Assembly (NCBI GenBank): GCA_028287505.1 | Contig: JAQBPN010000014.1 | Coordinates: forward strand, 2,648 to 66,647 | Direction: 5' to 3' | Origin: Fibrobacterota bacterium | GTDB lineage: Bacteria; Fibrobacterota; Fibrobacteria; UBA11236 | DNA length: 64,000 bases | In this document: piece after piece, positions 44,253-60,404 of the stretch | How positions within the stretch are numbered: position 1 is the stretch's first letter | Layout of the letters: each line of letters begins with the position of its first letter | Program-made: the position numbers and the translations under genes | Notes under the pieces: generated by a model | Database searches by the model: none | Told to the model about the DNA's origin: nothing | Seen by the model: the letters and a program-made list of their open reading frames with translations, nothing else

Positions 44253-45487
44253 TGCTCCCGCAAGGGATGGAACACTTCTTCCGCCATGAGTCGGGACGGA
44301 TCGTATCCATCCTGGCCGGCATCTTCGGCATGCGCAACCTGCAGCTTGCCGAAGATGTGGTGCAGGAAGCCCTGATGGCTGCCTTCAGCCAATGGACCTA
44401 CGGCCCCATCCCGGACAATCCCAGCGCCTGGGTCATGACCGTGGCCAAACGCAAGGCCCTGAACCATCTCAAGCGCGAAAAGCTGACGGAGAAATATGCC
44501 TGGGAGCTGGGGCCGGAAGGCCTAGCTCCCGGCATCATCGAGCAATCCTTCCAAGAGGATCAAGTAGAAGACTCCGTGCTCCGCATGATGTTCGTCTGCT
44601 GCCACCCGGACCTCCCCCCCGAAGCGCGCCTGGTGCTCACCCTTAAGATCATCTGCGGCTTCTCCGTGCAGGAAATCGCCAGCGCCCTCCTCTCCAACGA
44701 ATCCGCCATCGAAAAACGCCTCTCCCGCAGCAAACAGGAATTCCGCGACCGCCACCTGCCCATGGAAATCCCCGAAGGCGCTTCCCTCGAGAACCGCCTC
44801 CGCAGCGTACACCTTTGCATCTACCTGCTCTTCAACGAAGGCTACAACTCCTCCCATCCGGACTTCCTGATCCGCAAGGACCTATGCATGGAGGCCATGC
44901 GCCTCTGCAAAATGCTCCTGCACCGCTTCCCGTCCAACCGCCCCGGCTTCGCCCTGATGGCGCTGATGTGCTTCCATGCGGCTCGCTTCGAAAGCCGCAT
45001 CGACGATCACGGAGCGCTGATCCTATTCGCCAATCAGGACCGGTCCAAGTGGAATGCGGACCTGATCCGGGCCGGTCATTATCATCTGTCCGAGGCGGCG
45101 GGCGGCGATCAATTGACGGAGTACCATCTGGAGGCGGCGATTGCGGCGGAGCATTGCACGGCGAAGGATTTCGCGTCCACGCGCTGGGCGGAGATTGATC
45201 GGTATTACGAGGTGCTGGGGGAGATGAAGGATAACCCGGTGATCGAATTGAATCGGGCGGTGATCCTGTCGCAGACGCAGGGGCCTTTGGTGGCGATTAA
45301 GAAGCTGGATGCGTTGAAGGAGCATCCGAAGTTGAAGGGATATTACTTGCTGCACGCGACGTTGGGGGAGTTGTATTCGCAGGTGGGGGAGACGGGGAAG
45401 GCAAAGGAGCATTTCCTGGCGGCGATTGGGATGACGAGTTCGAAGGCGGAGGTGAGTTTTCTGAGGGGAAAGTTGGGGGCGGGGTAG
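44252..45487 (+). CDS. ECF-type sigma-70 factor with long C-terminal TPR-like extension (ECF42-like)
   Basis: Region 2 ..AEDVVQEALMAAFSQW...NPSAWVMTVAKRKALNHLKREK, region 4 ..GFSVQEIASALLSNESAIEKRLSRSK, and a ~200-aa helical C-terminal extension. The start overlaps the DGPF gene stop (TAATG). Confidence 0.85.
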   Translation: MLPQGMEHFFRHESGRIVSILAGIFGMRNLQLAEDVVQEALMAAFSQWTYGPIPDNPSAWVMTVAKRKALNHLKREKLTEKYAWELGPEGLAPGIIEQSFQEDQVEDSVLRMMFVCCHPDLPPEARLVLTLKIICGFSVQEIASALLSNESAIEKRLSRSKQEFRDRHLPMEIPEGASLENRLRSVHLCIYLLFNEGYNSSHPDFLIRKDLCMEAMRLCKMLLHRFPSNRPGFALMALMCFHAARFESRIDDHGALILFANQDRSKWNADLIRAGHYHLSEAAGGDQLTEYHLEAAIAAEHCTAKDFASTRWAEIDRYYEVLGEMKDNPVIELNRAVILSQTQGPLVAIKKLDALKEHPKLKGYYLLHATLGELYSQVGETGKAKEHFLAAIGMTSSKAEVSFLRGKLGAG

Positions 45488-45928
45488 GGGAAGCGGGTCG
45501 GGCATGTACAGTTTGTGCGTAGGGGTTCAATTGGCAAATTGCTTCTGGGTCGAGTAATGTTATGGGTTTTGTGATTCGGACTATTTTAAACGATATTGCC
45601 CAACAAAACCATTCTGATGAATGGTTCTTCGAGCCATTCGTGGTTTTGCAGAAACCAATCTAGGGTGAAGAAAAGTTTCACTTTACAACTAGTTGTGTTC
45701 AAAGCGAGGGCGGGGCTTCGCTCACTCTCGTTCGCTTCGCAATACACAACCGCCAACGTCCTGTTTGACGGGGTTTTCAAATTATATTTGCTAGATGGAT
45801 CCCTCTAAAACAAAATTATACGGCATCCTGGGCCGCGGGGTGTTCCTCCGAGCATCGTATCGCAATGTTCTGACGATGACAGAATGGGTAAGCTTTACAA
45901 GAATCCGCGCCTGAACAGGAGTTGCTGA

Positions 45929-48265
45929 GTGCATATTGAGTTCGTCGAAATCGCAAACTTTAGGAAGTTGCTTTCAACACGCGTCGATCTATCGACCACG
46001 ACAACACTTTTTGTCGGGGCCAACAATAGTGGCAAGACGTCGGCAATGCTCACTTTGCGCCGTTTTCTTTCGCCACGCCGTTGCCCTTTTGAGATACATG
46101 ACGTTACCCTATGCCACTGGCCCGCAATCATTGCGCTCGGTAAGAGTTGGATCACAGCGCACGACGCAGGGGACGTCGTTGATCTGGTTCTGGCCCCCTG
46201 GGTTAGCGTTCTCCCGACGCTTGACCTCTGGCTGCATGTCGAGACCGGCGAGATGCATCACGTTCGTGATCTGATTCCAACACTTGATTGGGAAGGTGGC
46301 AGGCTGGGCGTCCGACTGCGCTACGAGCCCAAGGATCTCGACCTGCTATACAAGGACTTTATGCGTGCCGTGAGCGACGCCGAGGCGATAAAGGCAGCGG
46401 CAATTGACGTTGCGGCGGCGGAACATCCGGACGCTGATCCTCCCCCGGCTCCTCCCAAGCTAACGATTTGGCCGGCGAACCTTGTCGACTTTCTTAGCAA
46501 GAGGCTCTCCACCCACTTCACAATCCGCGCCTACTCGCTGGATCCGACCAAGCTCGCGGCTTCCAAAAACTCCCTGGCGCAACCGCAGGTGCTACCGCTC
46601 GCGTCGCTACCGATCGAAGGCGATCCTTTGCACGGCCTAATCCGTGTGCATGATATCCCCGCACAACGCGGGTTCGGTGAAGAGCAGTCCGGCCAAGATG
46701 ACGAAGACGGTCCAGCCGCTGTGGCGGGCAGCCGTCTGTCGGAGCAGTTGAGAACCTACTATGCCAAGCATCTCGATCCGACAAAGGGACCCGATCCGAG
46801 GGATCTCGGGGCGCTCCAAGCGATCGAGGCCGCCCAGGACGCGTTCGACAAGCGGCTGACTGAAAGCTTCAAAGACGCATTCGATGAGGTCGAAGACATG
46901 GGCTATCCCGGTGTGACCGATCCCCGTCCGCGTGTGTCAACCCGACTGAAGGCGATTGACGGACTCAACCACAGTGCGGCAATTAGCTTCGAGGTCGATG
47001 TGGTCGCTGAGGATGGTGCGACTACACCCCTCCTACGATTACCCGAGGCCAGTAACGGGCTCGGCTATCAGAACTTGATCTCGATGATTTTCAGGCTGAT
47101 GAGCTTCCGCGACGCGTGGATGCGCGTCGGCAAGGCATCGAAAGGTACGACGATTGCTAGCACCGAGCCGCTCCATCTGGTGCTAGTCGAGGAACCCGAG
47201 GCACATCTTCACGCGCAGGTCCAGCAGGTCTTCATAAAAAAGGCCTATGCCGTGCTGCGAGCCCATGATGACTTGGGCGATAGCAAGAAGCTTCGCACCC
47301 AACTCGTGGTCAGCACCCACTCGAGCCACGTGGCACATGAAACCTTGTTCTCCTGCCTTCGCTATTTCCGTCGACTGCCGGCCGGCATGGCAGCCAAGGT
47401 GCCGGTTTCGACAGTCGTCAACCTGTCCGATGTGTTCGGTCCTGGAAGTGAGACCGAGCGATTCGTCACGCGCTATCTGCGTGCGCAGCATGCCGATCTG
47501 TTCTTCGCCGATGCCGCCATCCTTGTGGAAGGGCCGGCCGAGCGCATGCTCGTCCCCAATTTCATTCGTGCCCATTATGACAAGCTTAATCAGTGCTACA
47601 TCACGCTACTCGAGATAGGTGGCAGCCATGCACATCGTCTTAGGCCGCTGATAGATCATCTCGGGCTGCTGACGCTAATCATCACCGACCTCGATACTCT
47701 CGACCGTACCGGCGGCGTATCGGTACCACCGGCAAAGGGTGCCAACCAGAAAACCAACAACGCGACGCTAAAGGCCTGGGTGCCGGGTGTCGAGGACGTC
47801 GATGCTCTCATGGATGCTAATGCCTCAGCCAAGACCTTAGGCATGGACGGTGATCTCCTGTTTGCGGTGCGCGCCGCCTATCAAACCCCGCTGGTTGTGA
47901 CCGCACCGGGGTCCGCTGGGCCCGAAACGGCCTATCCTTACACGTTCGAGGATGCACTCGCGTTCGAGAACCTCGCCTTATTCGCGACGCTTAATGGGAC
48001 AGGTCTAGTGCGTAAGTTTCACGAAGCGATCACGAAAGGTGGTGGTGTGACTGCGATCGGCCAACGCATGTATGATGCCCTCAAGAGCGGCAAGAAAGCC
48101 GAGTTTGCGCTCGATGTCCTAGAGCTTGAGAAGTTCGACGACATCGTCGTGCCCGGCTACATTGCCGAGGGACTCGAATGGCTCCTCAAGCAGCTCAAGA
48201 AGAAGCAGCTCGAAATCCTGCCTCAGGTGGAGCAGCCAGAACAAGCCGAGCAGGCCGAAACATGA
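45929..48265 (+). CDS. OLD-family ATP-dependent nuclease (ABC-type ATPase + Toprim), class-2 OLD / GajA-like
   Basis: N-terminus MHIEFVEIANFRKL...FVGANNSGKTS (Walker A). Walker B LHLVLVEEPEAHLH and H-loop VVSTHSSH. Toprim ILVEGPAERMLVPNF and IITDLDTLD. GTG start is preceded by CAGGAG. Confidence 0.85.
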   Translation: MHIEFVEIANFRKLLSTRVDLSTTTTLFVGANNSGKTSAMLTLRRFLSPRRCPFEIHDVTLCHWPAIIALGKSWITAHDAGDVVDLVLAPWVSVLPTLDLWLHVETGEMHHVRDLIPTLDWEGGRLGVRLRYEPKDLDLLYKDFMRAVSDAEAIKAAAIDVAAAEHPDADPPPAPPKLTIWPANLVDFLSKRLSTHFTIRAYSLDPTKLAASKNSLAQPQVLPLASLPIEGDPLHGLIRVHDIPAQRGFGEEQSGQDDEDGPAAVAGSRLSEQLRTYYAKHLDPTKGPDPRDLGALQAIEAAQDAFDKRLTESFKDAFDEVEDMGYPGVTDPRPRVSTRLKAIDGLNHSAAISFEVDVVAEDGATTPLLRLPEASNGLGYQNLISMIFRLMSFRDAWMRVGKASKGTTIASTEPLHLVLVEEPEAHLHAQVQQVFIKKAYAVLRAHDDLGDSKKLRTQLVVSTHSSHVAHETLFSCLRYFRRLPAGMAAKVPVSTVVNLSDVFGPGSETERFVTRYLRAQHADLFFADAAILVEGPAERMLVPNFIRAHYDKLNQCYITLLEIGGSHAHRLRPLIDHLGLLTLIITDLDTLDRTGGVSVPPAKGANQKTNNATLKAWVPGVEDVDALMDANASAKTLGMDGDLLFAVRAAYQTPLVVTAPGSAGPETAYPYTFEDALAFENLALFATLNGTGLVRKFHEAITKGGGVTAIGQRMYDALKSGKKAEFALDVLELEKFDDIVVPGYIAEGLEWLLKQLKKKQLEILPQVEQPEQAEQAET

Positions 48266-50175
48266 GTGCCGACGACGACCAGTTCGACACCGTTGCAGAC
48301 GAGACTATCCTCAGCTGTCTAGACTTGGAGAAGCCGAGAAGCTTATTCCTCTATGCGGGCGCGGGATCTGGCAAGACGCGTTCGCTAGTAAATGCTATTC
48401 GTACGGTCTGCCGTGAGCAGGGTCGGCGTCTATCTCTAACTGGGCAGAAAATCGGCGTCATTACCTATACCAACGCTGCGTGCGACGAGATCAAGCAGCG
48501 GCTTGAGTTCGACCCGCGAGTCGAGGTGTCGACGATCCATGCCTTCGCTTGGTCATTGATTGCTGGGTATAACAAAGATATCAGGCAATGGCTCGCCGCA
48601 AGGCTGCTCCATGATGTCGCCGAACTCAAGGAGGCTCAAGCCAAGGGCCGTGCTGGCACCAAGGCCGCTGTGGACCGTGCCCGCTCGATTGAGAGCAAGC
48701 TGCGTCGCCACGCAGGTTTAGATGCGATTACGCGCTTCGTCTACAGTCCGACTGGCGATAACAGAACCCGCGACTCCCTTAACCATGCCGAAGTCATTGT
48801 GATGACAGCCGATTTTCTGAGCGCGAAACCTGGTCTACGTCGCCTGCTGGTAACCCGATTTCCTATCCTGCTGATCGATGAGAGCCAAGACACGAACCGC
48901 AGGCTCATGGATGTGCTGCTCGACGTCGAGGCAGCATACCGCGGTACTTTTTGCCTTGGCCTCTTCGGCGATATGATGCAGCGCATCTACGCCGACGGGA
49001 AGGATCGCCTGGCCGAGGCGATCCCCGAGAGTTGGGGGCGGCCACGTAAGCGAATGAACCATCGCTGCCCGACCAGGGTCATCGAGCTCATCAACAGGAT
49101 CCGCCAGGACGAGGATCGCGAGGAGCAGGTACCGCGAAGCGATGCCAGCGTCGGCGTCGTCCGATTGTTCGTTGTGTCGCATGCGATCACCGACAAGACT
49201 GGAATCGAGGCTGCGATCGCCGCGAGGATGGCCGAGATCACGGGCGATCAGAATTGGGCCGCGGGATCAGCAGCGATCAAGACGCTTGCTCTGGAGCATC
49301 TAATGTCGGCTCGCCGCTTCGGGTTCGAGGCGTTCTTCGAGCCACTCTATTCTGTCGAGCGGATTCGTACGAGCCTCCTTCAAGGGACCGGCGCCGGCAT
49401 TGGGTTGTTTACGCGCGAGATCCTGCCCCTGGTCACCGCACTACGCGCGTCGGACCGCTTCGCAGCCGCTGCGATCGTCCGGCGCACTTCACCACTCCTT
49501 GAGCACAAGGCGCTTGAGGAGGCTGGGGACAGGCAGTCCAACGTTCTCAGCAAGACTAACGCGACCTGCGATGGTCTTCTGGCGCTGGTGTCGGCTGCTG
49601 AAAAGCCAACGGCGCGCGCGGTGTTAGGCTATGTTGCCGAGACAGGTCTCTTTACACTCCCCGACGTGCTAGCGCCGTTTGCTGCTGCCGACGAAGCTGC
49701 GCTCGTAGGCGAAGCAGGAGAAGATGCTGATGATGAAACCGGCGAAGAAGAAGAGAACGATCTCAAGAGTGAGCTTGGCGGGTGGCGCTTAGCACTCGAA
49801 GCGCCATTTGATCAGATCGAGAAATATGATCGCTATGTCCGGGGCGTCTCGCAGTTCGATACACACCAGGGAGTGAAGGGCTTGGAGTTTCCACGCGTGA
49901 TGGTCATCGTAAGCGATGAGGAAGCGCGCGGGTTTATGTTCGCCTACGATAAGCTCTTTGGGACGAAGGAAAAGAGTAAGACCGACCTTGAAAATGAAGC
50001 ATTTGGCAAGGAAACCACGGTTGACCGGACGCGTCGGCTTTTCTATGTGACCTGTAGTCGTGCCGAGGAGAGTCTCGCGGTCGTCTACTACGCCGCCAAT
50101 CCTGCACTAGCGCGAGAAGCCATGATTAGGCAGGGCTGGTTCAAGCCAGAAGAGATCGAGATCATCGGAAAATGA
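48262..50175 (+). CDS. UvrD/PcrA/Rep-like superfamily-1 helicase, GajB-like
   Basis: Motif I LYAGAGSGKTRSLV, motif II LLIDESQDT, motifs V/VI HQGVKGLEFPRVMVIV and RRLFYVTCSRAEESLAVV. ATG at 48262 overlaps the OLD stop (ATGA). Confidence 0.85.
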   Translation: MSADDDQFDTVADETILSCLDLEKPRSLFLYAGAGSGKTRSLVNAIRTVCREQGRRLSLTGQKIGVITYTNAACDEIKQRLEFDPRVEVSTIHAFAWSLIAGYNKDIRQWLAARLLHDVAELKEAQAKGRAGTKAAVDRARSIESKLRRHAGLDAITRFVYSPTGDNRTRDSLNHAEVIVMTADFLSAKPGLRRLLVTRFPILLIDESQDTNRRLMDVLLDVEAAYRGTFCLGLFGDMMQRIYADGKDRLAEAIPESWGRPRKRMNHRCPTRVIELINRIRQDEDREEQVPRSDASVGVVRLFVVSHAITDKTGIEAAIAARMAEITGDQNWAAGSAAIKTLALEHLMSARRFGFEAFFEPLYSVERIRTSLLQGTGAGIGLFTREILPLVTALRASDRFAAAAIVRRTSPLLEHKALEEAGDRQSNVLSKTNATCDGLLALVSAAEKPTARAVLGYVAETGLFTLPDVLAPFAAADEAALVGEAGEDADDETGEEEENDLKSELGGWRLALEAPFDQIEKYDRYVRGVSQFDTHQGVKGLEFPRVMVIVSDEEARGFMFAYDKLFGTKEKSKTDLENEAFGKETTVDRTRRLFYVTCSRAEESLAVVYYAANPALAREAMIRQGWFKPEEIEIIGK

Positions 50176-50886
50176 GCGATCTACTGGCAAGAGAATGGCC
50201 GCTTTCTAATCACTTGATTTCAAACAGGCCATCCACTAATCGCCAAATTGCAGCTACAATCTCATCGATCAACGAATGACTGGATTTGGTCAGCCGGGAC
50301 GATACTGTGGACATTCGCTATGGGTCGATACTGGACAAAAGGTCTAGCATTCGCTTTGCCCTTCCTGGGCATACTTAGCAAAACCCGTCCCACCACTGAT
50401 CACAACCACCTCCAGCCTGGAGCCCGCGTACATGCTACGCATTGCGGGATCGCAAATGGCTTGGAAAGGGTGCGCGGTAGTTCGCACTAAGCTTCGGGCT
50501 GGCGCTTACGCGTTCCTCCTCCCACTCGGTCGTCGTCTGTGTTAGCTGGTCCTCAGCTTGTGCTCACTACATGCCGCAGGGGTTCGATACGGGGGCGGTA
50601 GCGCCCCACTTCATTCGCGTCCTCGCATATCGCGCATCCCTTTCCAAGCAACTTCAGGCTTGGGTGGCATTGGGCGAAATGGGACCTTGAAGAGTGGCCC
50701 TTCGGCCAATGTTTAGAGGTTATTTTTTGGGAGCGGGAAATCAGGAAATGAAAGCAAAGTCAAGCGGGCATGAGAGTATACCGGATTCAAAAAGGTCTGG
50801 CCTATTCTCCGGAAGAGCCGAATAACCGGGTATTCAAACCGCCCGTGCTGCTTGTGAACCGGCTGCAATACGGAAGGAAATAGACT

Positions 50887-51885
50887 GTGGCATTCTTTAG
50901 CTTAAACCACCGGGAAATTCGGCAAGGCGATATAGTTCTAACAAGGGATAGGTCTAAGACAAGCAAATGGATTCAGTTCAGTACACAAGGTGAATTCTCA
51001 CACGCAATTATTTACCTGGGAAATTATAGCCTGATTGAGGCAACGCTGGAAGGAGTGCACGTATCAAATTCACTTAGGAAAAGATTTGAGTCTCCAGATG
51101 ATGTTTCCGTGTATCGGCATAAAAAAAATCTCTCTCCAAATGAACTCCAATCCATGTGTGATTGGGCCAGGACAAACTACGCCGCGCAATACAATTTACT
51201 TGGGGCTATTGGTGCGGGCATTGGTGTTGAATTTGAGAGTGAGAGAAAGCAAACCTTTTGTTCAAAATTTGCCTGTATGGCCTATCAAAATATCGGGCAT
51301 TCAGTAGTGGATAATCCTTCAATAGCAACTCCTTCTGATATTTCGAAATCCGGGCACCTGTATCGAATAGATAAGTATCTCGTGAAAATTGAAAAAGAGG
51401 ATGAGGATTCGGAACCGAACCAAAATGAACGTCAAAAAGCGCTAATAAATGCTTTCATGATGAACGTGCGCGAAATTGCGGGAAAGAATGTCCAGACTTT
51501 CAACGACGTTGACCAGATTGTTTTAGAAAACAGAGAATTAGATAAGCCAATATCAGATTTGCTAGTTCAATCAGGATACCTTAACATGTGGCAATGGGAC
51601 GTTGAAATTTGCCCTTTCCATTACGACCTAGATAATCTTGGTGCACATGTAAAAAAATGGGGATTTACAAAAGAAGATTTGATGGATTATTGTGCGGACC
51701 AAATCAAAGCCTGCGACGAAAACGAGCGCCGCTATGCGAACAATTTGGCAGTTTGTGAAGACCTAATGTCCAAGAGACCGAGACAATTTATTCGTCTAAA
51801 GATTAACCTTTACAATACTCTAATCAGACAAACGGAAATAAGAAAAGAAGTTGCGGAAAAGGGAAGTCAGCTTGTCATCGAATAG
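50887..51885 (+). CDS. Permuted papain-fold (YiiX / peptidase C92-like, NlpC/P60 superfamily) domain fused to an unassigned ~160-aa C-terminal domain
   Basis: QGDIVLTRDRSKTSKWIQ...EFSHAIIYLG..LIEATLEGV...KQTFCSKFACMAY matches the YiiX His...Cys layout. GTG start. AT-rich codon usage. Confidence 0.6.
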   Translation: MAFFSLNHREIRQGDIVLTRDRSKTSKWIQFSTQGEFSHAIIYLGNYSLIEATLEGVHVSNSLRKRFESPDDVSVYRHKKNLSPNELQSMCDWARTNYAAQYNLLGAIGAGIGVEFESERKQTFCSKFACMAYQNIGHSVVDNPSIATPSDISKSGHLYRIDKYLVKIEKEDEDSEPNQNERQKALINAFMMNVREIAGKNVQTFNDVDQIVLENRELDKPISDLLVQSGYLNMWQWDVEICPFHYDLDNLGAHVKKWGFTKEDLMDYCADQIKACDENERRYANNLAVCEDLMSKRPRQFIRLKINLYNTLIRQTEIRKEVAEKGSQLVIE

Positions 51886-52060
51886 CGGTGCGACGTCGTA
51901 TAACAATCGAACTGAATGCGCTCTGCCGTTACGCCTTTCCCTTACGCGAACGTCGCGCCGGTGACGCTCCAGGCGCGTCCTTTACAGATCATGCCTTCCG
52001 CCAGTCCTCGAAGCTCATTAGGGTGTTGTTCGGACGAAATAAAATACACGGGACGTTACG

Positions 52061-52426
52061 ATGTGTGGAAGCCTCGAACTACTTAGTCCAATTGAATGGA
52101 AGTCATTGGCGAATATTATTGGGCCTATTTATTCGAATTGGGTAAGGCATAAGTACGGATGGAGAGGCGCTTCAATTGAAGACGAAGAAGCAAATCATTT
52201 TGATTATATTCAAGCAATATATGAAAACGGGGGAAAATTTAGTATTACAGATCATAGTTCTTTAAATAGAATATTATGCACGGCATACTCTCTTTCATTG
52301 ACTGACATTTGCGCGAATTTGGGAGCGTGTCGAAATATTTGCCTGGCCACTCCCCACGATTTTGAATCATTCAAAAAAAGAATTGAGTGCGAAGTATATA
52401 AGATTAAATTAGCTCAAATTATTTAG
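52061..52426 (+). CDS. Hypothetical protein (121 aa), AT-rich cassette
   Basis: Only sizeable ORF in this interval, on the same strand as its neighbours. No domain recognised. Confidence 0.4.
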   Translation: MCGSLELLSPIEWKSLANIIGPIYSNWVRHKYGWRGASIEDEEANHFDYIQAIYENGGKFSITDHSSLNRILCTAYSLSLTDICANLGACRNICLATPHDFESFKKRIECEVYKIKLAQII

Positions 52427-52491
52427 CGGCTTGTTGGACCTATCCACCCTTAACAAGGGTGCAAAAAATAAAAATGAGAAACGAAATTTAA

Positions 52492-53172
52492 ATGAAAAAA
52501 ATCGCCATCATCCTTTCAATTCTCCTATTGCTAGTTATTGGTGTCATAAGCATCTGGAGCGCCGACAACGATGGTCTTAATAAAATAGGAACCGTCGCAA
52601 AAGCTCTTCAAGGATTTTGCAATGTTGCGACATTAGTTATCGCAGTTTTGTTATATGAAAAATATGGAATGGACGAGCCGATAAAGGAGAAGCAGCTAGA
52701 TGTTGTTCTAAAATGCTTAGAAAAATCTAAGAAGGTATTCGTTTTTTTCGAGGGGCAGATAACAGGAGGTGGAGGATCTGTAATTAGTTTTAGGCCTGCT
52801 GAACAGGCTTGGCATGAGTTCTCAGAGTTTGACAATCAACCGCTTCTATTTCATCACTCATATTTTGTGGGCATGCGAGGAATTGAGGAAATAACAGAAG
52901 ATCTGTATTTCCCTACTGAGCTAAAGCCTCATATACCATTTCTTTCAACCCCAGTGATGACTTCAGTTAATGAAAAGGAGCGAGTTGGATATTTCGTTGC
53001 TAGTTGTCCAATACGGGAAATGAATGAAGATAAGACAAAAATTGGAAAAGTTTGGAAACGAGAATTGAAAATATCAAATATCAAACTCATGTGGAAAACA
53101 TTCATAAATGAACAAGTTGCCTGGATTAACAGTCATTCAAACAATAAGGTCGAGCTAAATATTCTGAAATAA
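52492..53172 (+). CDS. Hypothetical membrane protein (two N-terminal TM helices + ~150-aa soluble domain), AT-rich cassette
   Basis: MKKIAIILSILLLLVIGVISIW and GFCNVATLVIAVLLY are hydrophobic helices. ATG is preceded by an A-rich leader. No domain recognised. Confidence 0.5.
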   Translation: MKKIAIILSILLLLVIGVISIWSADNDGLNKIGTVAKALQGFCNVATLVIAVLLYEKYGMDEPIKEKQLDVVLKCLEKSKKVFVFFEGQITGGGGSVISFRPAEQAWHEFSEFDNQPLLFHHSYFVGMRGIEEITEDLYFPTELKPHIPFLSTPVMTSVNEKERVGYFVASCPIREMNEDKTKIGKVWKRELKISNIKLMWKTFINEQVAWINSHSNNKVELNILK

Positions 53173-53495
53173 ATTCCCGCCTCATAGTCCTGCGTATAAA
53201 GGGAAAGTTATCACGCACTTGGGTCTGGAGTTGGAGGGGGCAATAAGGATAGATGAAAAGAGGATACTAAAGTGATCGAAATAAAAAATACTATCGACAT
53301 TCCGAAATAATAAATTTTGAGTGTCCTACGTGTTCAAATGGTAGGTTTACCGGTGTTGAAAAGGAAATAGTTAAAAAGGAGACCATCGATTCAATTAAAA
53401 ATGGTGAATTAAACGGGCGCACTGCTTATGAATACGAAGCTCGTTACACATGCATTTTTAAGTGCTCGAATCCTAAATGCGGAGATCACATCTTC

Positions 53496-54029
53496 ATGAC
53501 CGGAATGGAGGCAATTGATGAAGAGTTTGTCCGTGGGCAACGTGGTGAACCAGAAACCGAATATTTCAGTGTGTATAACCCTCAGTTTATTAGTCCGCCT
53601 ATCCGCATAGTCCCTCTAAATGAAAAATATCCAAAGTTTGTAAAAGAAGATCTAATCAGTTCATTTCAAGTATTCTGGACTGATTCAAGTGCCTGCGGAA
53701 ATCGAATCAGAGTTTGTGTCGAAAATCTTCTGGCCCATTTCAAAATCTCTAAGTTAACACCAAAGAAAAAGTTCAAGTCGCTTGAAAGTCGTATAAAGGA
53801 ATTCAAAGTACAATACCCGAAATACGAGACGCTTGCAAATAATTTGCTAGCCATCAAATGGATGGGCAACGTAGCGTCACATGAAGAGATCTCAAGAGAA
53901 GATGTGGCAACAGCTTACCAAATATTTGGGTTTGTCCTGGATGAGATATTTCATAATCGTAAAGAGCAAATGGATAAAATGTCTAGGTTGATTATTAAGA
54001 AAAAGGGAAAAACAAAGAAGAAGCGTTAG
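53496..54029 (+). CDS. DUF4145-like domain protein; the reading frame continues upstream (to 53271) through a Zn-ribbon-like segment without a canonical start
   Basis: The C-terminal part ..CGNRIRVCVENLL...LESRIKEF...LLAIKWMGNVASHEE..A..IFGFVLDEIF fits the DUF4145 pattern (..GN..aH). The upstream in-frame segment encodes ECPTCSNGRF...CIFKCSNPKCGDH. Confidence 0.6.
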   Translation: MTGMEAIDEEFVRGQRGEPETEYFSVYNPQFISPPIRIVPLNEKYPKFVKEDLISSFQVFWTDSSACGNRIRVCVENLLAHFKISKLTPKKKFKSLESRIKEFKVQYPKYETLANNLLAIKWMGNVASHEEISREDVATAYQIFGFVLDEIFHNRKEQMDKMSRLIIKKKGKTKKKR

Positions 54030-54117
54030 CATCGGCTAACAGTCACTCAGATGAGGTCGCACCGGAATCGCCCGCATCGCGCCCGCAAATGGGCCTTCGA
54101 GGAGCCTGCTGGCCCAG

Positions 54118-54253
54118 AAAATTATTCTGCTTCCCCGCCCATTTTATTACCCTTTAAGAAGCTTCCAGGCACGCCCCTGTCCCGTGCCGCGATTCCAGTT
54201 CTTTCCCTAAACGGTGCCTTAATGCGTTCGATACGATGGTTCTCCTGGCCCAC
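54118..54253 (+). repeat. Direct repeat copy A (~136 bp): orphan copy of the promoter region plus first 11 codons of the FN3-repeat gene
   Basis: Manual alignment to 57548-57682 gives about a dozen differences over ~136 nt. The last 32 nt (ATGCGTTCGATACGATGGTTCTCCTGGCCCAC) are identical. Confidence 0.85.
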
Positions 54254-54270: not shown

Positions 54271-55002
54271 TTATCGTTCCCAGTGAACTTCGTTTGGATT
54301 GGAATTAGTAGGCCGCAAGGAGGGCAGGGCAACCGGTTCATTAACGTGACGTATCCAGGCATATGCATCATAGACCACCTTGAGATCAGCCAGAAGTCCG
54401 GAGATCAGAACCGCCAGCAGCCACCAGGGAAAATGCTTCACAGCATAATAGGGTGTGATCATGTCCTTTGAGGGTAATGTGGGTGGTCGTTCCTCCAAGT
54501 CCTGGATCCGCTTATTCGCGGTGGCAAGTTCCACATCCCTCTCTTCCAGTTGCATTCGAATTCCCAGAGTTGGATCCGTGGCGGGCCTTTCCGCTTTCGG
54601 CTTCAATCCCTCAACGCGCCCTTTGGTAACGATGTTGTTGGTCAAGCCTGCAATCTTATCCAAGTAGAATTCTCCGCTATTGAACCACTGCTGCTGGGTC
54701 GCGGAGTTCATCCAGACCTTGACGTTGTCAAATTCCGTTATCCAATATGTTTCATCGGACTCGCTACGCAGTATTCGCTCAGCCTGGACGAGGTTTGCAT
54801 AAAAATCGGCTTTGAGCTTGTGCCTTTGTGGCGCAATCATCGGCACTTCCCACCGACGCCGGATCGAAATAATCTGATCTTCAATCTGGTCAAATTGCTC
54901 GACCAATTCTTCTCTTGTCATAAGTGATTCAAATAGTAGCTTTTTGGTGGATACCTTCCGCCATACTCCATCCTCTACGCTACTCCCATGATTTCGGACC
55001 AC
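54271..55002 (-). CDS. Hypothetical protein with coiled-coil-like region and C-terminal TM helix
   Basis: Longest ORF in the interval. Hydrophobic helix WWLLAVLISGLLADL near the C-terminus. Divergent from the TetR gene. No domain recognised. Confidence 0.45.
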   Translation of the reverse strand: MVRNHGSSVEDGVWRKVSTKKLLFESLMTREELVEQFDQIEDQIISIRRRWEVPMIAPQRHKLKADFYANLVQAERILRSESDETYWITEFDNVKVWMNSATQQQWFNSGEFYLDKIAGLTNNIVTKGRVEGLKPKAERPATDPTLGIRMQLEERDVELATANKRIQDLEERPPTLPSKDMITPYYAVKHFPWWLLAVLISGLLADLKVVYDAYAWIRHVNEPVALPSLRPTNSNPNEVHWER

Positions 55003-55172: not shown

Positions 55173-55784
55173 TTGACGCCATCGGACCAACAAGTGAATT
55201 CGGTAGAGCCTATAAACCGTTCGACAAAGCAACGCCTTCTCGAAGTCGGTTTGGGTATGTTGCTGGAGCGCGGATATAACGCCCTCGGGGTGCAGGCACT
55301 CCTAAGCGTTGCGGAGGTCCCGAAGGGATCCTTTTACCACCACTTCAAAAGTAAGGAGGATTTCGCGCTGCAGGTCATCGATCTGTACATGCTCGAAGTC
55401 CATGCCGGCCTCAACGCCTGCCTCGGCGATACCACCCGCCCGCCGCTCGCAAGGGTGCGTGGGTTTTTTGAAATGATACGGGAAAAGTACCGCGGTGATG
55501 GGTACCTGGGGTGCCTCCTCGGTGGGCTGGGACAGGAACTCTCGGGCGTGAGCGAAATTTTTCGGCGCAAAATCGATGAATGCCTTAACGTAATCGCGGA
55601 AAATCTCGCGGCTTGTCTGGAAGAGGCTCGCAGTGCCGGGAATCTTCCAGCGGGCGCAAACCCCAGGGAAATGGCGCAGCTTTTGGTGGACTGCTGGGAG
55701 GGGGCTGCGCTGCGAACGCGCCTTCGCCGAGATCCTGCACCGTTGCAAACCATGCTCGACTTCTATTTCGGGCAGATTCGCTAA
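55173..55784 (+). CDS. TetR/AcrR-family transcriptional regulator
   Basis: N-terminal HTH: TKQRLLEVGLGMLLERGYNALGVQALLSVAEVPKGSFYHHFKSKEDF. TTG start as given by the ORF track. Confidence 0.85.
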   Translation: MTPSDQQVNSVEPINRSTKQRLLEVGLGMLLERGYNALGVQALLSVAEVPKGSFYHHFKSKEDFALQVIDLYMLEVHAGLNACLGDTTRPPLARVRGFFEMIREKYRGDGYLGCLLGGLGQELSGVSEIFRRKIDECLNVIAENLAACLEEARSAGNLPAGANPREMAQLLVDCWEGAALRTRLRRDPAPLQTMLDFYFGQIR

Positions 55785-56354: not shown

Positions 56355-56846
56355 TTATCCTGATGCACATCTCGGCATCGTTTTGCCTATCTTCCAATGA
56401 CTTAGAGAGCGCGTAGGTATAGCGGAGGTTGAAGTTTGCTTGGAAATGAGTTCTTTCCATTTGAAGCCGCTCCCCCAAACCCTTGAAACTCTATCCAGCA
56501 AAATTTCCCGAGTGAAGGGTTTTCTAACATAGTCTGCACCTTCAGGGCAGAGGTTTTGGCTCGTAAGGATTTCGGCGGAATAGGCGGATATGAACAGGAC
56601 TTTGATATGATGTTTGATTGTGCAAATGCGATTGGCCAATTCCCGTCCATGCATGTATGGCATGATAATGTCTGTAATAAGTAGGTCTATATTGATGTCA
56701 GGAGTGATTACCAAGTCTACCGCTTCTCGTCCCCCAGCCGCTTGATATACCTTGTATCCTGCAGATTCAAGATACAGGCAAACCAATTCCCTGACAGAAC
56801 GCTCATCATCCACGACGAGAATAGTTGGTTTCTTATTTTCCATCAT
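56355..56846 (-). CDS. Orphan CheY-like receiver-domain protein
   Basis: ILVVDDERSVRE...DLLITDIIMPYMHG...VLFISAY...YVRKPF. No output domain recognised. AT-rich relative to the flanks. Confidence 0.8.
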   Translation of the reverse strand: MMENKKPTILVVDDERSVRELVCLYLESAGYKVYQAAGGREAVDLVITPDINIDLLITDIIMPYMHGRELANRICTIKHHIKVLFISAYSAEILTSQNLCPEGADYVRKPFTREILLDRVSRVWGSGFKWKELISKQTSTSAIPTRSLSHWKIGKTMPRCASG

Positions 56847-57099
56847 TCGAAATTCACCGGATGCCTTTCCTCATGATCAACACATGTCCAAAACTGTAAA
56901 AACGTATCTACTCTCGGATTTTTATTCCGATAGAACATTGCCAACCAATGCAAATCATCAATAAGATTTTCAGCCGGATGAGAGATCCGGACGCCTGGAT
57001 CTAACAAAGCATTTTTCGATCAATAGCGAGCCAGGATCAAGAGAGCGGGGGGAAGATTACTTTACCATTAATGGCTTTCCTTTCATGAAGGGGAAATAA

Positions 57100-57639
57100 A
57101 TTTCTCGCCGCGGAGGTGGAAAATATTTTCCCTATATTAAGAGGTATAATTATCCCGAATTTCAGCCAATTCGGCCATACGATTTCGTTGGTTTCGCTAA
57201 AGGTGACAGTACACTTATTGAGTCGACTAATGATTGGGAAAAGCCTGTAAGGGTAAGTGCAGAAACCCTACAAATCGATTATGAGGGCAATGAGGTTTTG
57301 GGTGATCGAAAATACAGGCATAAATCCATTGCCATTACCGGTATAGTTTCTTCGGTCGATCGAGGTGTTGGCGAGAATTACTTCATTTCTTTAAGGGGTG
57401 GCAAAAATATGTTTGTGAACCCACATGCTTCAATGGCTGATGGGTTTACAGACTATCTTGCGGCTCTTAAAAAGGGACAAACCACTTATTTGGTGTGCCA
57501 AGGTGACGGAATGCTTCTCGGATCGGCCATCCTCAAAGATTGCCGCAAAAATTATTCTACTCCCCACCCATTTTATTACCCTTTCAGAAGCCTCCCGGCA
57601 CGCCCCTGTCCCGTGCCGCGGTTCCAGCTCTTTCCCTGA
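57100..57639 (+). pseudogene. OB-fold tRNA_anti-like (PF12869-like) protein gene, apparently 5'-disrupted; its 3' end runs into repeat copy B
   Basis: ..TLQIDYEGNEVLGDRKYRHKSIAITGIVSSVDRG..YFISLRGG...KKGQTTYLVCQGDG..ILKDC fits the family pattern. The frame is open from 57100. The only upstream in-frame ATG (57085) is separated from it by a TAA at 57097. The ORF-track TTG at 57298 would remove conserved residues. Confidence 0.45.
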
Positions 57640-57682
57640 AGGGTGCCTAAATGCGTTCGATACGATGGTTCTCCTGGCCCAC
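57548..57682 (+). repeat. Direct repeat copy B (~135 bp): functional promoter/5' end of the FN3-repeat gene
   Basis: See copy A. It contains the conserved hairpin GGCACG-N9-CGTGCC and the ATG at 57651. Confidence 0.85.
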
Positions 57683-60404
57683 CGCCCTGCTCCTCCCATC
57701 CCTCGCCCTCGCCACTAACCCACCCACCACCATCACCCTGAAGAAACCCGCGGCCGCCGCCATCGTCCCCGTCCGCCCCGACACCTTCTCCTGGCATGAC
57801 GCCCAACCCCGTCCCACCATCCCCGGCTCCAGTCCGGCCCGACTGGCGCCTTACCAATTGCAGGTCACTAAAGACGCCACATTTCCCACCGTCACGCCCA
57901 CGGTTTTTCCGATCCCTCCCAGCTATCCCTACGCCATCAACTCCTTTGTAAACGATTCCGTCCTCGCAGCGGGTCCCATGGTTTTCGTCTTGGATCCAAA
58001 CGCCCTTTATTACTGGCGGGTTTTCATTCCCACTGACTCCGGAGGCGACGGCTCTTTTGCCCAGGGTTCTTTCACAACCGGGGACCAGCCGCCGGAGATT
58101 CCCGTTCTCGAATCGCCCTCGATCAATGCGCAGGATATTTTCCAGGGCCAGAAATTCGTGTGGCACAAATCCGATCGGGCGGTGAATTATCGCCTGCAAA
58201 TCGCGTTCGACAACGGCTTCACTGTGGGAGTGCAGGACACCTTGGTCAGCGACACCACCGGCTCGTTCCCATCCCTTGCCTACCATCAGGTTTACTATTG
58301 GCGCGTACGGGGCGAGAACACCGGCGGCCCCGGCATCTGGTCGCTAGTCCGCGGCCTGGTCACCACCATCGCTCCGCCGGCGAAACCCGTCATGATCTAC
58401 CCGGCGGACAACGCGGTCAACGCGAGCCTCCCCGGCGGATTCTCCTGGAACCAGCTTCCAGTCGACGGCTGGCACCTACAGGTGGCAACCGACACCGGCT
58501 TCACGAACCTCGTCTATGTCGATTCGACATCTTTGGTTGGGAATGCCGTCGGCGCAACGGCCACGGGCCTGGACAGCGGCTTGACCTATTACTGCCGTCT
58601 GCGCGGCAAGAACTCCGGGGGCGTGTCGCCCTGGTCCGATTGGCGGCGCTTCACGACTTACGGCCACGTGCCGCTCCGGATCGCGCCGGTGACGGGAGCC
58701 AACGATGTGCCCTTGCGTCCTACCTTCAAGTGGTCGCGGGTGCCGCAGGCCGCCAGCTACGGCCTCATCATCGCCGAGGTGCGGTTCGAAGGCTACGTAC
58801 AGTATCACGATACCGTGATCAACATCCAATCCGGGATCACGGATACCGCCTACCAATCGGACCCATTGCCTGCCGGCCACGTATTCGTGTGGTACGCGGG
58901 TGCTGCGATTTCCCAGCAGACGTCTTTTTCCGACTATGGCATTTTCACCAACGTGCCTCCGCTTCCCGGCCCGCCCATTCTGAAAACGCCGGCCCAGGAT
59001 TCGCAGAACGTCGAAGCGTCGTACGGTTATTTCCAATGGGACTCCGCGCCCATCGATCCCGCCCATGGCACGTCCGCGGGGTATCGCTTCCAATTGTCCG
59101 CCGAAAACGCCTTCGCCGCGCCGCTTCTCGATTCGATTCTGCCTTTCAGCGGATTGCTCCTGACCGGCCGGTTGTCCCCGGGAACGCGTTACTACTGGCG
59201 CGTGTTGGCCACGAATGGCAACGGTCCGGGCGATTGGTCCGTCCCATCCGGATTCACCACCACGCCGAACGCGCCCGCGGCTCCGGCGCTGGTTTCACCG
59301 GCCTCCAACTCGGACAGCGAATCCCTCACGCCTACTTTGCGGTGGCGCGCCTCCACGGGCGCGACCCAATACATAGTGGCGCTGGAGTCCTTTGTCGATA
59401 CCGACTTCGTGGAATTGCGCAAGGATACCCTCACCGATACCTCGGTGACCGTGGGGCCGCTGAACTGCGATCAATACTATAGCTGGTCCGTGGTGGCCCT
59501 CAATGCCGGCGGCAAGGGTTATTCCGTATTCAGAGGCTTCCGGACCCTTCCGGACTTGCCGGGAAAGGTCGTGCTGATGAAGCCGGCTAACGGTTCGCAG
59601 AATGTCTCCATCGCTCCCACCCTGGTCTGGGACACGGTCAGAGACGCCTACGATTTCCGCCTCGTGGCCTCCGCCTCCGCGGACTTCGGCTCCCCGGTTA
59701 TCGATACCCTGATCTCTCCCGAGGACAGCAACGTCTTCGCGATCAAGGGGTTGGCCAACGATACCAAGTATCATTGGCGCGTCCGCAGCGAGAATCTGGC
59801 CGGGCCGGGCGCCTGGTCCGATCCCTTCGAGTTCACCACCATCGTGCGCCTGCCGGATCCGGTAACTTTGGTGTTTCCGGCCCAGGGGGAAACGGTGACG
59901 GGCGACAGCACCCGCGCGCTGTGGCGCGTCGGTGTTCCCAATGCGGACCGCTATTGGGTGGCCGTGTCCAAGGATTCCGCCTTCTCCGGGCAATTCATCG
60001 ACACGGCGGTGACGGATACCGGCAAGGAGGTCCGGTACTCGGCCGCCCCCGGGACCTATTGGTGGAAGGTGAAGGCCCACAACGTCGCGGGGTGGGGGGA
60101 GTTCAGCCCCAAGCAATCCTTCATCGTCGCCGATCCGGGCATTGGCATCTTGCCCAAGGATTTCAAATCCCAGTTCGTGGAATTCACGGGTGGGTCGCAA
60201 TTGCGCTATGGCCTGCTGAAGCCCGGGCACGTGACCATCCGGATGTTCGATTTCCGGGGAAGCCTGCGCGCCGTGCCCATGGATGGCGACCAGCCTGCGG
60301 GCCAGCATGACCTGATCCTGCCTGCCCTGCCGCGGGGGGTCTACTATCTGTCCTTCCGCGCGGGAGACTTCCGCCGTCAGGCGCGGGTCCTTCTGGACCG
60401 GTAG
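57651..60404 (+). CDS. Secreted protein with eight tandem ~97-aa FN3-like repeats and T9SS-like C-terminal sorting domain
   Basis: Signal peptide MRSIRWFSWPTALLLPSLALA. Eight units each end in a [YW][YW]W[RK]V..N..G.G.WS....F.T-like motif (LYYWRV, VYYWRVRGEN, TYYCRLRGKN, RYYWRVLATN, KYHWRVRSEN, TYWWKVKAHN..). The C-terminus is ..GHVTIRMFDFRG...GVYYLSFRAG. Confidence 0.8.
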   Translation: MRSIRWFSWPTALLLPSLALATNPPTTITLKKPAAAAIVPVRPDTFSWHDAQPRPTIPGSSPARLAPYQLQVTKDATFPTVTPTVFPIPPSYPYAINSFVNDSVLAAGPMVFVLDPNALYYWRVFIPTDSGGDGSFAQGSFTTGDQPPEIPVLESPSINAQDIFQGQKFVWHKSDRAVNYRLQIAFDNGFTVGVQDTLVSDTTGSFPSLAYHQVYYWRVRGENTGGPGIWSLVRGLVTTIAPPAKPVMIYPADNAVNASLPGGFSWNQLPVDGWHLQVATDTGFTNLVYVDSTSLVGNAVGATATGLDSGLTYYCRLRGKNSGGVSPWSDWRRFTTYGHVPLRIAPVTGANDVPLRPTFKWSRVPQAASYGLIIAEVRFEGYVQYHDTVINIQSGITDTAYQSDPLPAGHVFVWYAGAAISQQTSFSDYGIFTNVPPLPGPPILKTPAQDSQNVEASYGYFQWDSAPIDPAHGTSAGYRFQLSAENAFAAPLLDSILPFSGLLLTGRLSPGTRYYWRVLATNGNGPGDWSVPSGFTTTPNAPAAPALVSPASNSDSESLTPTLRWRASTGATQYIVALESFVDTDFVELRKDTLTDTSVTVGPLNCDQYYSWSVVALNAGGKGYSVFRGFRTLPDLPGKVVLMKPANGSQNVSIAPTLVWDTVRDAYDFRLVASASADFGSPVIDTLISPEDSNVFAIKGLANDTKYHWRVRSENLAGPGAWSDPFEFTTIVRLPDPVTLVFPAQGETVTGDSTRALWRVGVPNADRYWVAVSKDSAFSGQFIDTAVTDTGKEVRYSAAPGTYWWKVKAHNVAGWGEFSPKQSFIVADPGIGILPKDFKSQFVEFTGGSQLRYGLLKPGHVTIRMFDFRGSLRAVPMDGDQPAGQHDLILPALPRGVYYLSFRAGDFRRQARVLLDR

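Follow-up and report, generated by a model that had tools for sequence, protein, structure and literature searches.

Introduction

RAZR (PD-T7-4) of Escherichia coli UMB1727 is a single-protein abortive-infection RNase (PMC13017515; PMC9519451), listed in the supplement to the second of these studies as a ‘Zn finger-HEPN’ protein encoded by a 661-nucleotide (nt) open reading frame (ORF). Its zinc-finger domain binds ring-shaped phage proteins—the portal of T7 and T3, as well as Gp77 of SECphi27—and the protein, which assembles as a 24-mer, cleaves single-stranded RNA in a manner that depends on residues R146 and H154 (PMC13017515). Here we consider a stretch of DNA whose last gene has a comparable architecture: positions 50887–54029 of a 64,000-nt window (the whole stretch of DNA that was analysed), which holds four ORFs, g1 to g4, directly after the GajA/GajB pair of a Gabija system. 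A preliminary description of this DNA had proposed that the four genes form one uncharacterised defence or abortive-infection module. Our analysis points elsewhere: with a probability that we put at about 0.6, the stretch is a patchwork of single-gene cassettes, accessory or defensive, that were acquired one by one at the edge of the Gabija locus, rather than one co-evolved four-gene system. The earlier proposal is thus supported in part. As to its content, the stretch holds a divergent and frameshifted member of the RAZR-like zinc-ribbon–HEPN kind (g4), two uncharacterised single-gene families (g1 and g3) and one orphan (g2).

The DUF4145 domain found in g4 is a member of the HEPN superfamily that occurs fused to restriction endonucleases, helicases and zinc ribbons, and in operons with restriction–modification (R-M) and McrBC genes (PMC3710099); the restriction association and HEPN-like relationship named in the preliminary description are both borne out by this source. 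The enzymes closest to g1, the YaeF/YiiX-type members of the NlpC/P60 group, carry a permuted His/Cys dyad (PMC7387801). Members of this group have been linked to lipid and acyl chemistry (PMC7387801; PMC12994826), the substrates of some permuted enzymes being lipids or acyl groups (PMC12994826). P2-like phages, in turn, possess a defence hotspot between gpA and the portal gene (PMC9519451). The stretch invites comparison with such prophage hotspots and defence islands (Rousset 2022; Vassallo 2022, PMC9519451): variable accessory slots house homologues both of g4 (gp49 of phage SEN8) and of g1 (in Kp4852-2 and related prophages, where the slot follows int), and the stretch itself abuts Gabija. 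It differs in that g1–g4 are chromosomal and stand side by side, with no phage gene or integrase close to them in the region of the window examined.

Four genes of low GC content beside a Gabija pair

The stretch spans 3.1 kb and has the lowest GC content of the whole window, with fractions of 0.405, 0.361, 0.373 and 0.377 for g1, g2, g3 and g4, respectively, against 0.584 for the window overall; estimates previously made by eye (‘one-third’ here, ‘>60%’ in the core) were both slightly too extreme. All four ORFs lie on the + strand, are separated by gaps of 65–176 nt at a coding density of 89%, and are similar to each other in both GC content and codon usage. The picture of four same-strand ORFs of foreign composition, sitting in the most AT-rich part of the window next to a Gabija-like pair, is thereby upheld, with PADLOC confirming the pair as GajA/GajB. 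None of g1, g2, g3 or g4 matches a model of PADLOC-DB v2.0.0, the models for multi-gene systems included. The sequence is reproduced in an independent Logan assembly contig (L001; SRR13312994), which is 100% identical to positions 45254–54250.

The AT-rich composition is interrupted by the spacer between g1 and g2 (51886–52060; 175 nt, no strand assigned), which has a host-like GC fraction of 0.55 and no repeat copy elsewhere in the window. This spacer may represent a recombination joint between separately acquired pieces; it is absent from the contig of the closest g1 homologue, where the next gene overlaps the stop codon.

Relatives of g1, g3 and g4 are found apart elsewhere

Across 116 loci that carry a homologue of g1 (12 loci), g3 (19 loci) or g4 (85 loci), tblastn or blastp searches with g1–g4 find a second gene of the cassette in none (0/116). 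Neither the proposed four-gene module nor a conserved order of its homologues across genomes survives this comparison; nor do the two genes on either side of g4 homologues, in the 37 genomes with full flanks, include any recurrent family, save in two Psychrobacter genomes with shared synteny. To judge by these sequence comparisons, g1, g3 and g4 each behave as an independently mobile single gene. It is on account of this lack of co-occurrence, the single-gene behaviour of g1, g3 and g4, and the GC-rich spacer that we favour a patchwork over a four-gene machine. The expected link to defence neighbourhoods does hold, in that three of the four genes (g1, g3 and g4) have relatives in defence or prophage-accessory contexts. 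The locus would then be an accretion zone, in which unrelated single-gene cassettes have piled up head-to-tail beside Gabija.

g4 resembles RAZR but carries a frameshift

The ORF called for g4 (53496–54029, + strand; 177 aa) does not contain the Cys4 zinc-ribbon motifs (CPTC ... CSNPKC; 53322–53480, + strand), which lie upstream of it. There is no in-frame ATG, GTG or TTG ahead of the zinc ribbon, and a TAA is found at 53268. Five homologues of 249–257 aa nevertheless align across the zinc ribbon, beginning ~17–20 residues before the CxxC. In the +1 frame, a GTG at 53272, preceded by GAGGA at a spacing of 7 nt, opens the reading M-I-E-I-K; and if the A6 tract at 53283–53288 (+ strand) is written as A7, the translation runs on as MIEIKKYYRH..., a string colinear with MVTIKEYYRY in the homologue most similar to g4 (61% identity). 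Alignment at the DNA level to this same homologue shows that the two share the GAGGA Shine–Dalgarno sequence and that the window is 1 nt short between the start codon and codon 7. Homologue extent and DNA alignment together lead us to place g4 at 53272–54029 (+ strand), ~252 aa in length if the A-tract is restored, but as sequenced frameshifted after codon 5.

The reading frame of g4 is thus not intact, a lesion missed in the preliminary description, in which both domains were correctly recognised but the zinc ribbon was taken to lie within the called ORF. The tract that is one A short of the homologues’ frame has the same sequence in the second assembly (L001), and sits inside a heptamer, A_AAA_AAT, that has the form of a −1 slippery sequence. 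Since the 1-nt deletion puts the zinc ribbon out of frame with the start codon, this copy of g4 is probably inactive, or else expressed only through rare −1 slippage; that slippage rescues its expression is speculation on our part. The 75 codons of the zinc-ribbon region upstream of Met-76 are still open, and the lesion is therefore either recent or tolerated.

Pfam assigns g4 to DUF4145 (PF13643) with an E-value of 2.1e-13, and the HEPN-type motif K-W-M-G-N-V-A-S-H is encoded at 53856–53882 (+ strand; K196 to H204 in the repaired numbering, used throughout). In 67 members of the family, C18 and C21 (the CPTC pair), C65, R147, E151, K196, G199, N200 and H204 are invariant and C70 is nearly so (>=90%), with the region around the histidine taking the form AIK[WF]xGNxxSH. 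The position eight residues before H204 is a lysine (K196) in 67/67 sequences and also in SEN8 gp49, where RAZR has its catalytic arginine—a correspondence that we take from the R146–H154 spacing rather than from an alignment to RAZR.

An AlphaFold2 (AF2) model of g4 (predicted local distance difference test score, pLDDT, 85.9) shows a beta-rich N-terminal domain of ~105 residues (pLDDT ~85–93) followed by a helical C-terminal domain. Foldseek finds no significant match to this model in the PDB; its best relevant matches are to the HEPN toxin 7ae6/7ae8 (probability 0.75–0.87, E > 0.1), a structure that also served the authors of the RAZR study for comparison (PMC13017515). At the level of sequence profiles, the PADLOC model for PD-T7-4 is matched by 14/67 members of the g4 family (best 9e-6), by far the most frequent PADLOC match, and gp49 of Salmonella phage SEN8 provides a bridge, matching g4 at 2e-28 and PD-T7-4 at 4e-5. 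Architecture and these transitive profile matches support, but do not prove, a distant relationship between the g4 family and RAZR / PD-T7-4.

In both cases a single polypeptide carries an N-terminal Cys4 zinc ribbon and a C-terminal DUF4145/HEPN-like domain with a ...GN...H motif, and both occur as stand-alone genes in mobile or defence contexts. The differences are those of length (~252 aa for g4 against ~220 codons for PD-T7-4, whose PADLOC profile has 211 positions), of the N-terminal domain (~105 residues with long beta-hairpins in the AF2 model, against ~65 in RAZR), of the invariant Lys in place of the catalytic Arg, and of the frameshift in the window copy. The earlier impression that no named system could be recognised here therefore stands for the four-gene combination but not for g4, as zinc ribbon plus DUF4145 is the architecture of RAZR / PD-T7-4.

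Of the four genes, g4 is the only one with a mechanistic precedent. By analogy with RAZR, its zinc-ribbon domain would bind a ring-shaped phage protein, for instance the portal; oligomerisation would then align the HEPN dimers, and the resulting RNA cleavage could stop translation and abort the infection.

Homologues of g4 are found in 72 loci of species-representative genomes (mostly Bacteroidota and Proteobacteria) and in seven viral contigs. In line with a defence context, the genes within two positions of the homologues in the 37 genomes match 56 PADLOC models at <=1e-8, and those 8–10 kb away match 15; models matched by the near neighbours include DRT UG5-nitrilase, IetAS, PD-Lambda-3, PDC-S06 and a type II restriction endonuclease. 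Other contexts comprise a contig with a TIR (TIR_2) neighbour, a DUF2158 neighbour, and the gpA-to-portal hotspot of the P2-like phage SEN8, which houses gp49. No g3 accompanies the closest homologue (locus L007), whose upstream gene is divergent and lies at a distance of 409 nt. A Shewanella island with a g4 homologue also contains a type I R-M system (HsdR), McrBC and a VWA–PP2C–kinase set. Here (Shewanella sp. YLB-07, locus L002, 5953–9507), a triad of VWA protein, PP2C phosphatase and Ser/Thr kinase (the latter with a zinc ribbon) lies between McrBC and the g4 homologue, and is probably another defence module.

g1 belongs to a prophage family of permuted-papain proteins

The product of g1 (50887–51885, + strand; 332 aa) consists of a Peptidase_C92 / YaeF-YiiX-like domain (residues ~1–160) and a conserved, all-helical C-terminal domain (~175–332). 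Pfam Peptidase_C92 (PF05708) matches residues 11–137 with an E-value of 1.2e-6 and 29.1 bits, above the gathering score of 27, and both H39 (in FSHA) and C125 (in FCS) are invariant in 11 sequences of the family, so that the permuted papain-fold YiiX/C92-like domain named in the preliminary description is borne out. The catalytic histidine precedes the cysteine, i.e. the order is permuted, in agreement with the description in PMC7387801. The ~160 C-terminal residues, which could not then be assigned, form an extra domain; they turn out to be conserved, helical and common to the phage relatives, with D219, G230, Y246, D247, N286 and Y309 invariant in the same 11 sequences. No transmembrane (TM) segment is found by hydropathy. 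From these features we predict that g1 acts in the cytoplasm as a Cys/His hydrolase or acyltransferase of the permuted NlpC/P60 type, to which a helical domain of its own is attached. An AF2 model, made from a two-sequence alignment, reaches a pLDDT of 44.6 and is too poor for a fold search.

Set beside the YaeF/YiiX-like enzymes (Peptidase_C92; PDB 2IF6 and 3KW0), g1 shares the His-then-Cys order and passes the Pfam gathering score, and its best sequence match in the PDB is to 3kw0 (0.016). It is, however, neither a YaeF nor a YiiX orthologue: the NCBIfam model for YaeF matches at 3e-15 but with 55.9 bits against an equivalog cut-off of 279, and that for YiiX with 24.9 against 216. In addition, g1 has the extra helical domain, and its relatives are prophage genes beside an integrase rather than housekeeping genes. 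A phage protein family, phrog_1128, also matches g1 (2e-18); its PHROG label, given with Bacillus phage G gp212 as ‘enoyl-CoA hydratase/carnithine racemase-like’, looks to be a misnomer, as the similarity to g1 falls on the C92 permuted-papain domain.

Close relatives of g1 are rare: among 5.8 billion proteins there is one only (P0002), 54% identical over the full length. Profile and translated searches find relatives in 12 viral or prophage loci, in each case full-length and with similarity running through the C-terminal domain, whilst a scan of genome contigs, limited by the peptide patterns it used, returned none. In 11/12 phage loci the homologue stands immediately downstream of the gene in the integrase position at the prophage end. 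These 11 loci form two groups, and in each of them Pfam Phage_integrase was confirmed for one representative. Six of the 11 are P2-like prophages with the order repressor, integrase, g1 homologue, prophage end; in the other five an integrase-type gene of ~397 aa is followed by the g1 homologue and then by a helix-turn-helix (HTH) gene on the opposite strand. In the twelfth locus (L025) the upstream gene is unannotated and encodes 275 aa. A role for g1 as a lysogen-protecting or exclusion factor may be envisaged from this placement.

g3 represents a two-helix membrane family linked to R-M loci, and g2 an orphan

The g3 gene (52492–53172, + strand; 226 aa) encodes two N-terminal TM helices, as previously described and as confirmed by hydropathy (hydrophobic segments at about residues 1–26 and 35–54), followed by a C-terminal domain of ~165 aa; its family is unannotated. 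A word-indexed search returns the window’s own protein only, but exhaustive phmmer finds 128 further relatives (cluster representatives at 50% identity; E<=1e-3) of ~200–240 aa, which align end to end with 20–31% identity; P141 and W211 are invariant positions of the family. These relatives have no Pfam family, and look-ups of their clusters gave no informative names. The full 56-sequence alignment was too divergent to serve as a query, and it was with a subset of it that 19 loci were fetched.

Two of these loci contain a type I R-M operon in which the g3-family gene (L103, 3105–3803; L104, 8001–8699) separates hsdR from a fused hsdM/S gene, lying 2–5 nt from its neighbours; so tight an insertion suggests an R-M-associated accessory role for the family. 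Neighbours elsewhere include a HEPN/RES-NTD1+RES protein (L101/L102), a SIR2_2 protein (L110), a DEAD/ResIII helicase (L107), an AAA_15/AAA_21 ATPase (L105) and a Schlafen AlbA_2 protein (L116), as well as a trypsin-like peptidase without obvious defence role (L100). No partner, including a small upstream one, recurs across unrelated members of the 19 loci. The g3 product may be a membrane effector or exclusion protein.

By comparison g2 (52061–52426, + strand; 121 aa) has no detectable relatives. Pfam, PADLOC, NCBIfam, phage and plasmid collections and viral contigs yield no match, and PHROGs a single, non-significant one (E 0.049), in line with the earlier statement that it lacks a recognisable domain. 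The evidence that it is a gene consists of ORF statistics: a + strand ORF of its length in the 606-nt gap has a probability of 0.0018 under a composition-matched model, and the codon-usage score peaks in its own frame, with a usage that fits the neighbouring genes. We conclude that g2 is probably a real gene, and an orphan.

Weighing the alternatives

Several observations weigh against a patchwork with a RAZR-like member. Most of the 116 comparison loci contain distant homologues (25–45% identity), many of them on short contigs, so that a lineage-specific link could be missed, and the close homologues of g1 and g4 lie on very short contigs: that of P0002 is 1.2 kb long, and the start of another gene, whose identity is not readable, overlaps the P0002 stop codon. 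In the window, g1–g4 share a strand, an AT-rich composition and short gaps, no + strand terminator-like site is predicted between them, and they may be co-transcribed. The comparison of near and far neighbours of g4 homologues by PADLOC counts models rather than proteins and is semi-quantitative only. As for the kinship with RAZR, the g4 motif has Lys at the position of the catalytic Arg; g4 itself matches no PADLOC model, PD-T7-4 included, even at E<=10; PDB sequence searches with the g4 profiles and SEN8 gp49 return no RAZR chain; and the RAZR entries 9Y9C and 9Y6U are not among the 50 Foldseek matches listed.

The features that would permit co-transcription, together with the uniform codon usage and 89% coding density, are also what one would expect if g1–g4, or g1–g3, were a lineage-restricted defence or abortive-infection operon with peptidase, small adaptor, membrane effector and RNase acting together; the want of a PADLOC model match for any of the four, and the gene whose start overlaps the P0002 stop codon, fit this too. 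But such an operon is difficult to reconcile with 0/116 co-occurrence, with the occurrence of g1, g3 and g4 each alone in varied contexts, with a GC-rich spacer that interrupts the cassette, and with a frameshifted g4, and we rate it the least probable of the alternatives. A more modest arrangement, in which a smaller functional pair exists—g2, for example, serving g1 or g3 as immunity protein, antitoxin or regulator—and the rest are independent, draws on the small size of g2, its lack of relatives and its position 65 nt upstream of the membrane protein g3, and could accommodate the unreadable start/stop-overlapping gene behind P0002. It too is unlikely, if somewhat less so, given that no small upstream partner recurs with g3 homologues in the 19 loci and that the phage homologues of g1 are either at the prophage end or followed by the opposite-strand HTH gene.

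The g4 frameshift, the 711-nt non-coding gap ahead of g1, the GC-rich spacer, a direct repeat of 136 nt that follows closely downstream and looks like an insertion scar, and the lack of an integrase in the window region examined would all suit a third explanation: that the stretch is the decaying cargo of a former mobile element with no current defence role, g4 being a pseudogene and the others leftover accessory genes. Against decay, the ORFs of g1, g2 and g3 are uninterrupted despite the abundance of stop codons in AT-rich DNA, the zinc-ribbon codons upstream of Met-76 of g4 have stayed open, and neither g1 nor g4 has lost its catalytic residues; we consider it improbable, falling between the operon and the smaller pair. 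The patchwork of single-gene cassettes thus remains the reading that we prefer.

What the patchwork would imply

If true, the locus shows defence islands growing by the stacking of unrelated single-gene cassettes beside an established system. The RAZR-like clade, present in at least 72 species genomes, is one whose members mostly escape the PADLOC PD-T7-4 model and carry Lys for the catalytic Arg. The other leads are a cysteine-hydrolase family found in prophages beside the integrase, and a two-TM family tied to R-M loci. No current ideas are overturned; the value lies in a wider catalogue and in a test of how far the RAZR mechanism generalises. We advance only tentatively, and with more doubt than conviction, the stronger proposal that g1 and g3 are each a new single-gene anti-phage or exclusion family—g1 a Cys/His hydrolase or acyltransferase of permuted-papain type joined to a helical domain, beside the integrase of P2-like and other prophages; g3 a two-TM protein of ~220 aa that occurs within type I R-M operons and neighbours SIR2, RES and OLD-type ATPase genes—and that the Lys-for-Arg g4 clade is a distinct RAZR-like branch with an enlarged sensor domain.

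The Gabija pair and the flanking DNA

The adjacent Gabija system (45929–50175, + strand) is recognised by PADLOC with E-values of 2e-279 (GajA) and 9e-246 (GajB), and by Pfam through its AAA_15/OLD TOPRIM and UvrD domains; GajA occupies 45929–48265, and the GajB ORF ends at 50175. As longest-ORF calls, gajA and gajB overlap by 88 nt (48178–48265); in the Logan gene call, gajB begins at what corresponds to window position 48262, and the overlap is then 4 nt, as is typical of translational coupling. Between gajB and g1 lies a gap of 711 nt (50176–50886; GC 0.53) that contains no ORF longer than 80 aa; it has no match in Rfam and resembles none of the fetched loci. We considered whether the cassette might be an extension of Gabija and rejected this: although Gabija directly precedes g1–g4 on their own strand, it is already complete with its two genes, g1–g4 differ from it sharply in composition and are 711 nt away, and GajA/GajB are not among the PADLOC matches listed for the neighbours of g4 homologues.

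Promoter and terminator scans of the region do not rise above shuffled controls, and Rfam finds nothing in it apart from one weak match, to sX6 inside gajB (E 0.1). The non-coding gaps and the 54–57.6 kb segment give no tblastx match to any of the fetched loci. Convergent with g4 is a 243-aa ORF (54271–55002, − strand) with no significant match in Pfam, PADLOC, NCBIfam or PHROGs.

The 136-nt direct repeat mentioned above is 93% identical between its copies, A (54118–54253) and B (57548–57682). Copy A lies 90 nt past the end of g4, and copy B comprises the upstream region and first 11 codons of a gene for a fn3-repeat protein (57651–60404); between them is a 3.3-kb segment of lower GC content with a TetR gene (55173–55784), a response regulator (56355–56846, − strand) and two ORFs without matches. 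The repeat resembles an att-type duplication or insertion scar, with no integrase seen. Just upstream of copy B is a second AT-rich patch (56850–57550; GC 0.41–0.43), apparently largely non-coding.

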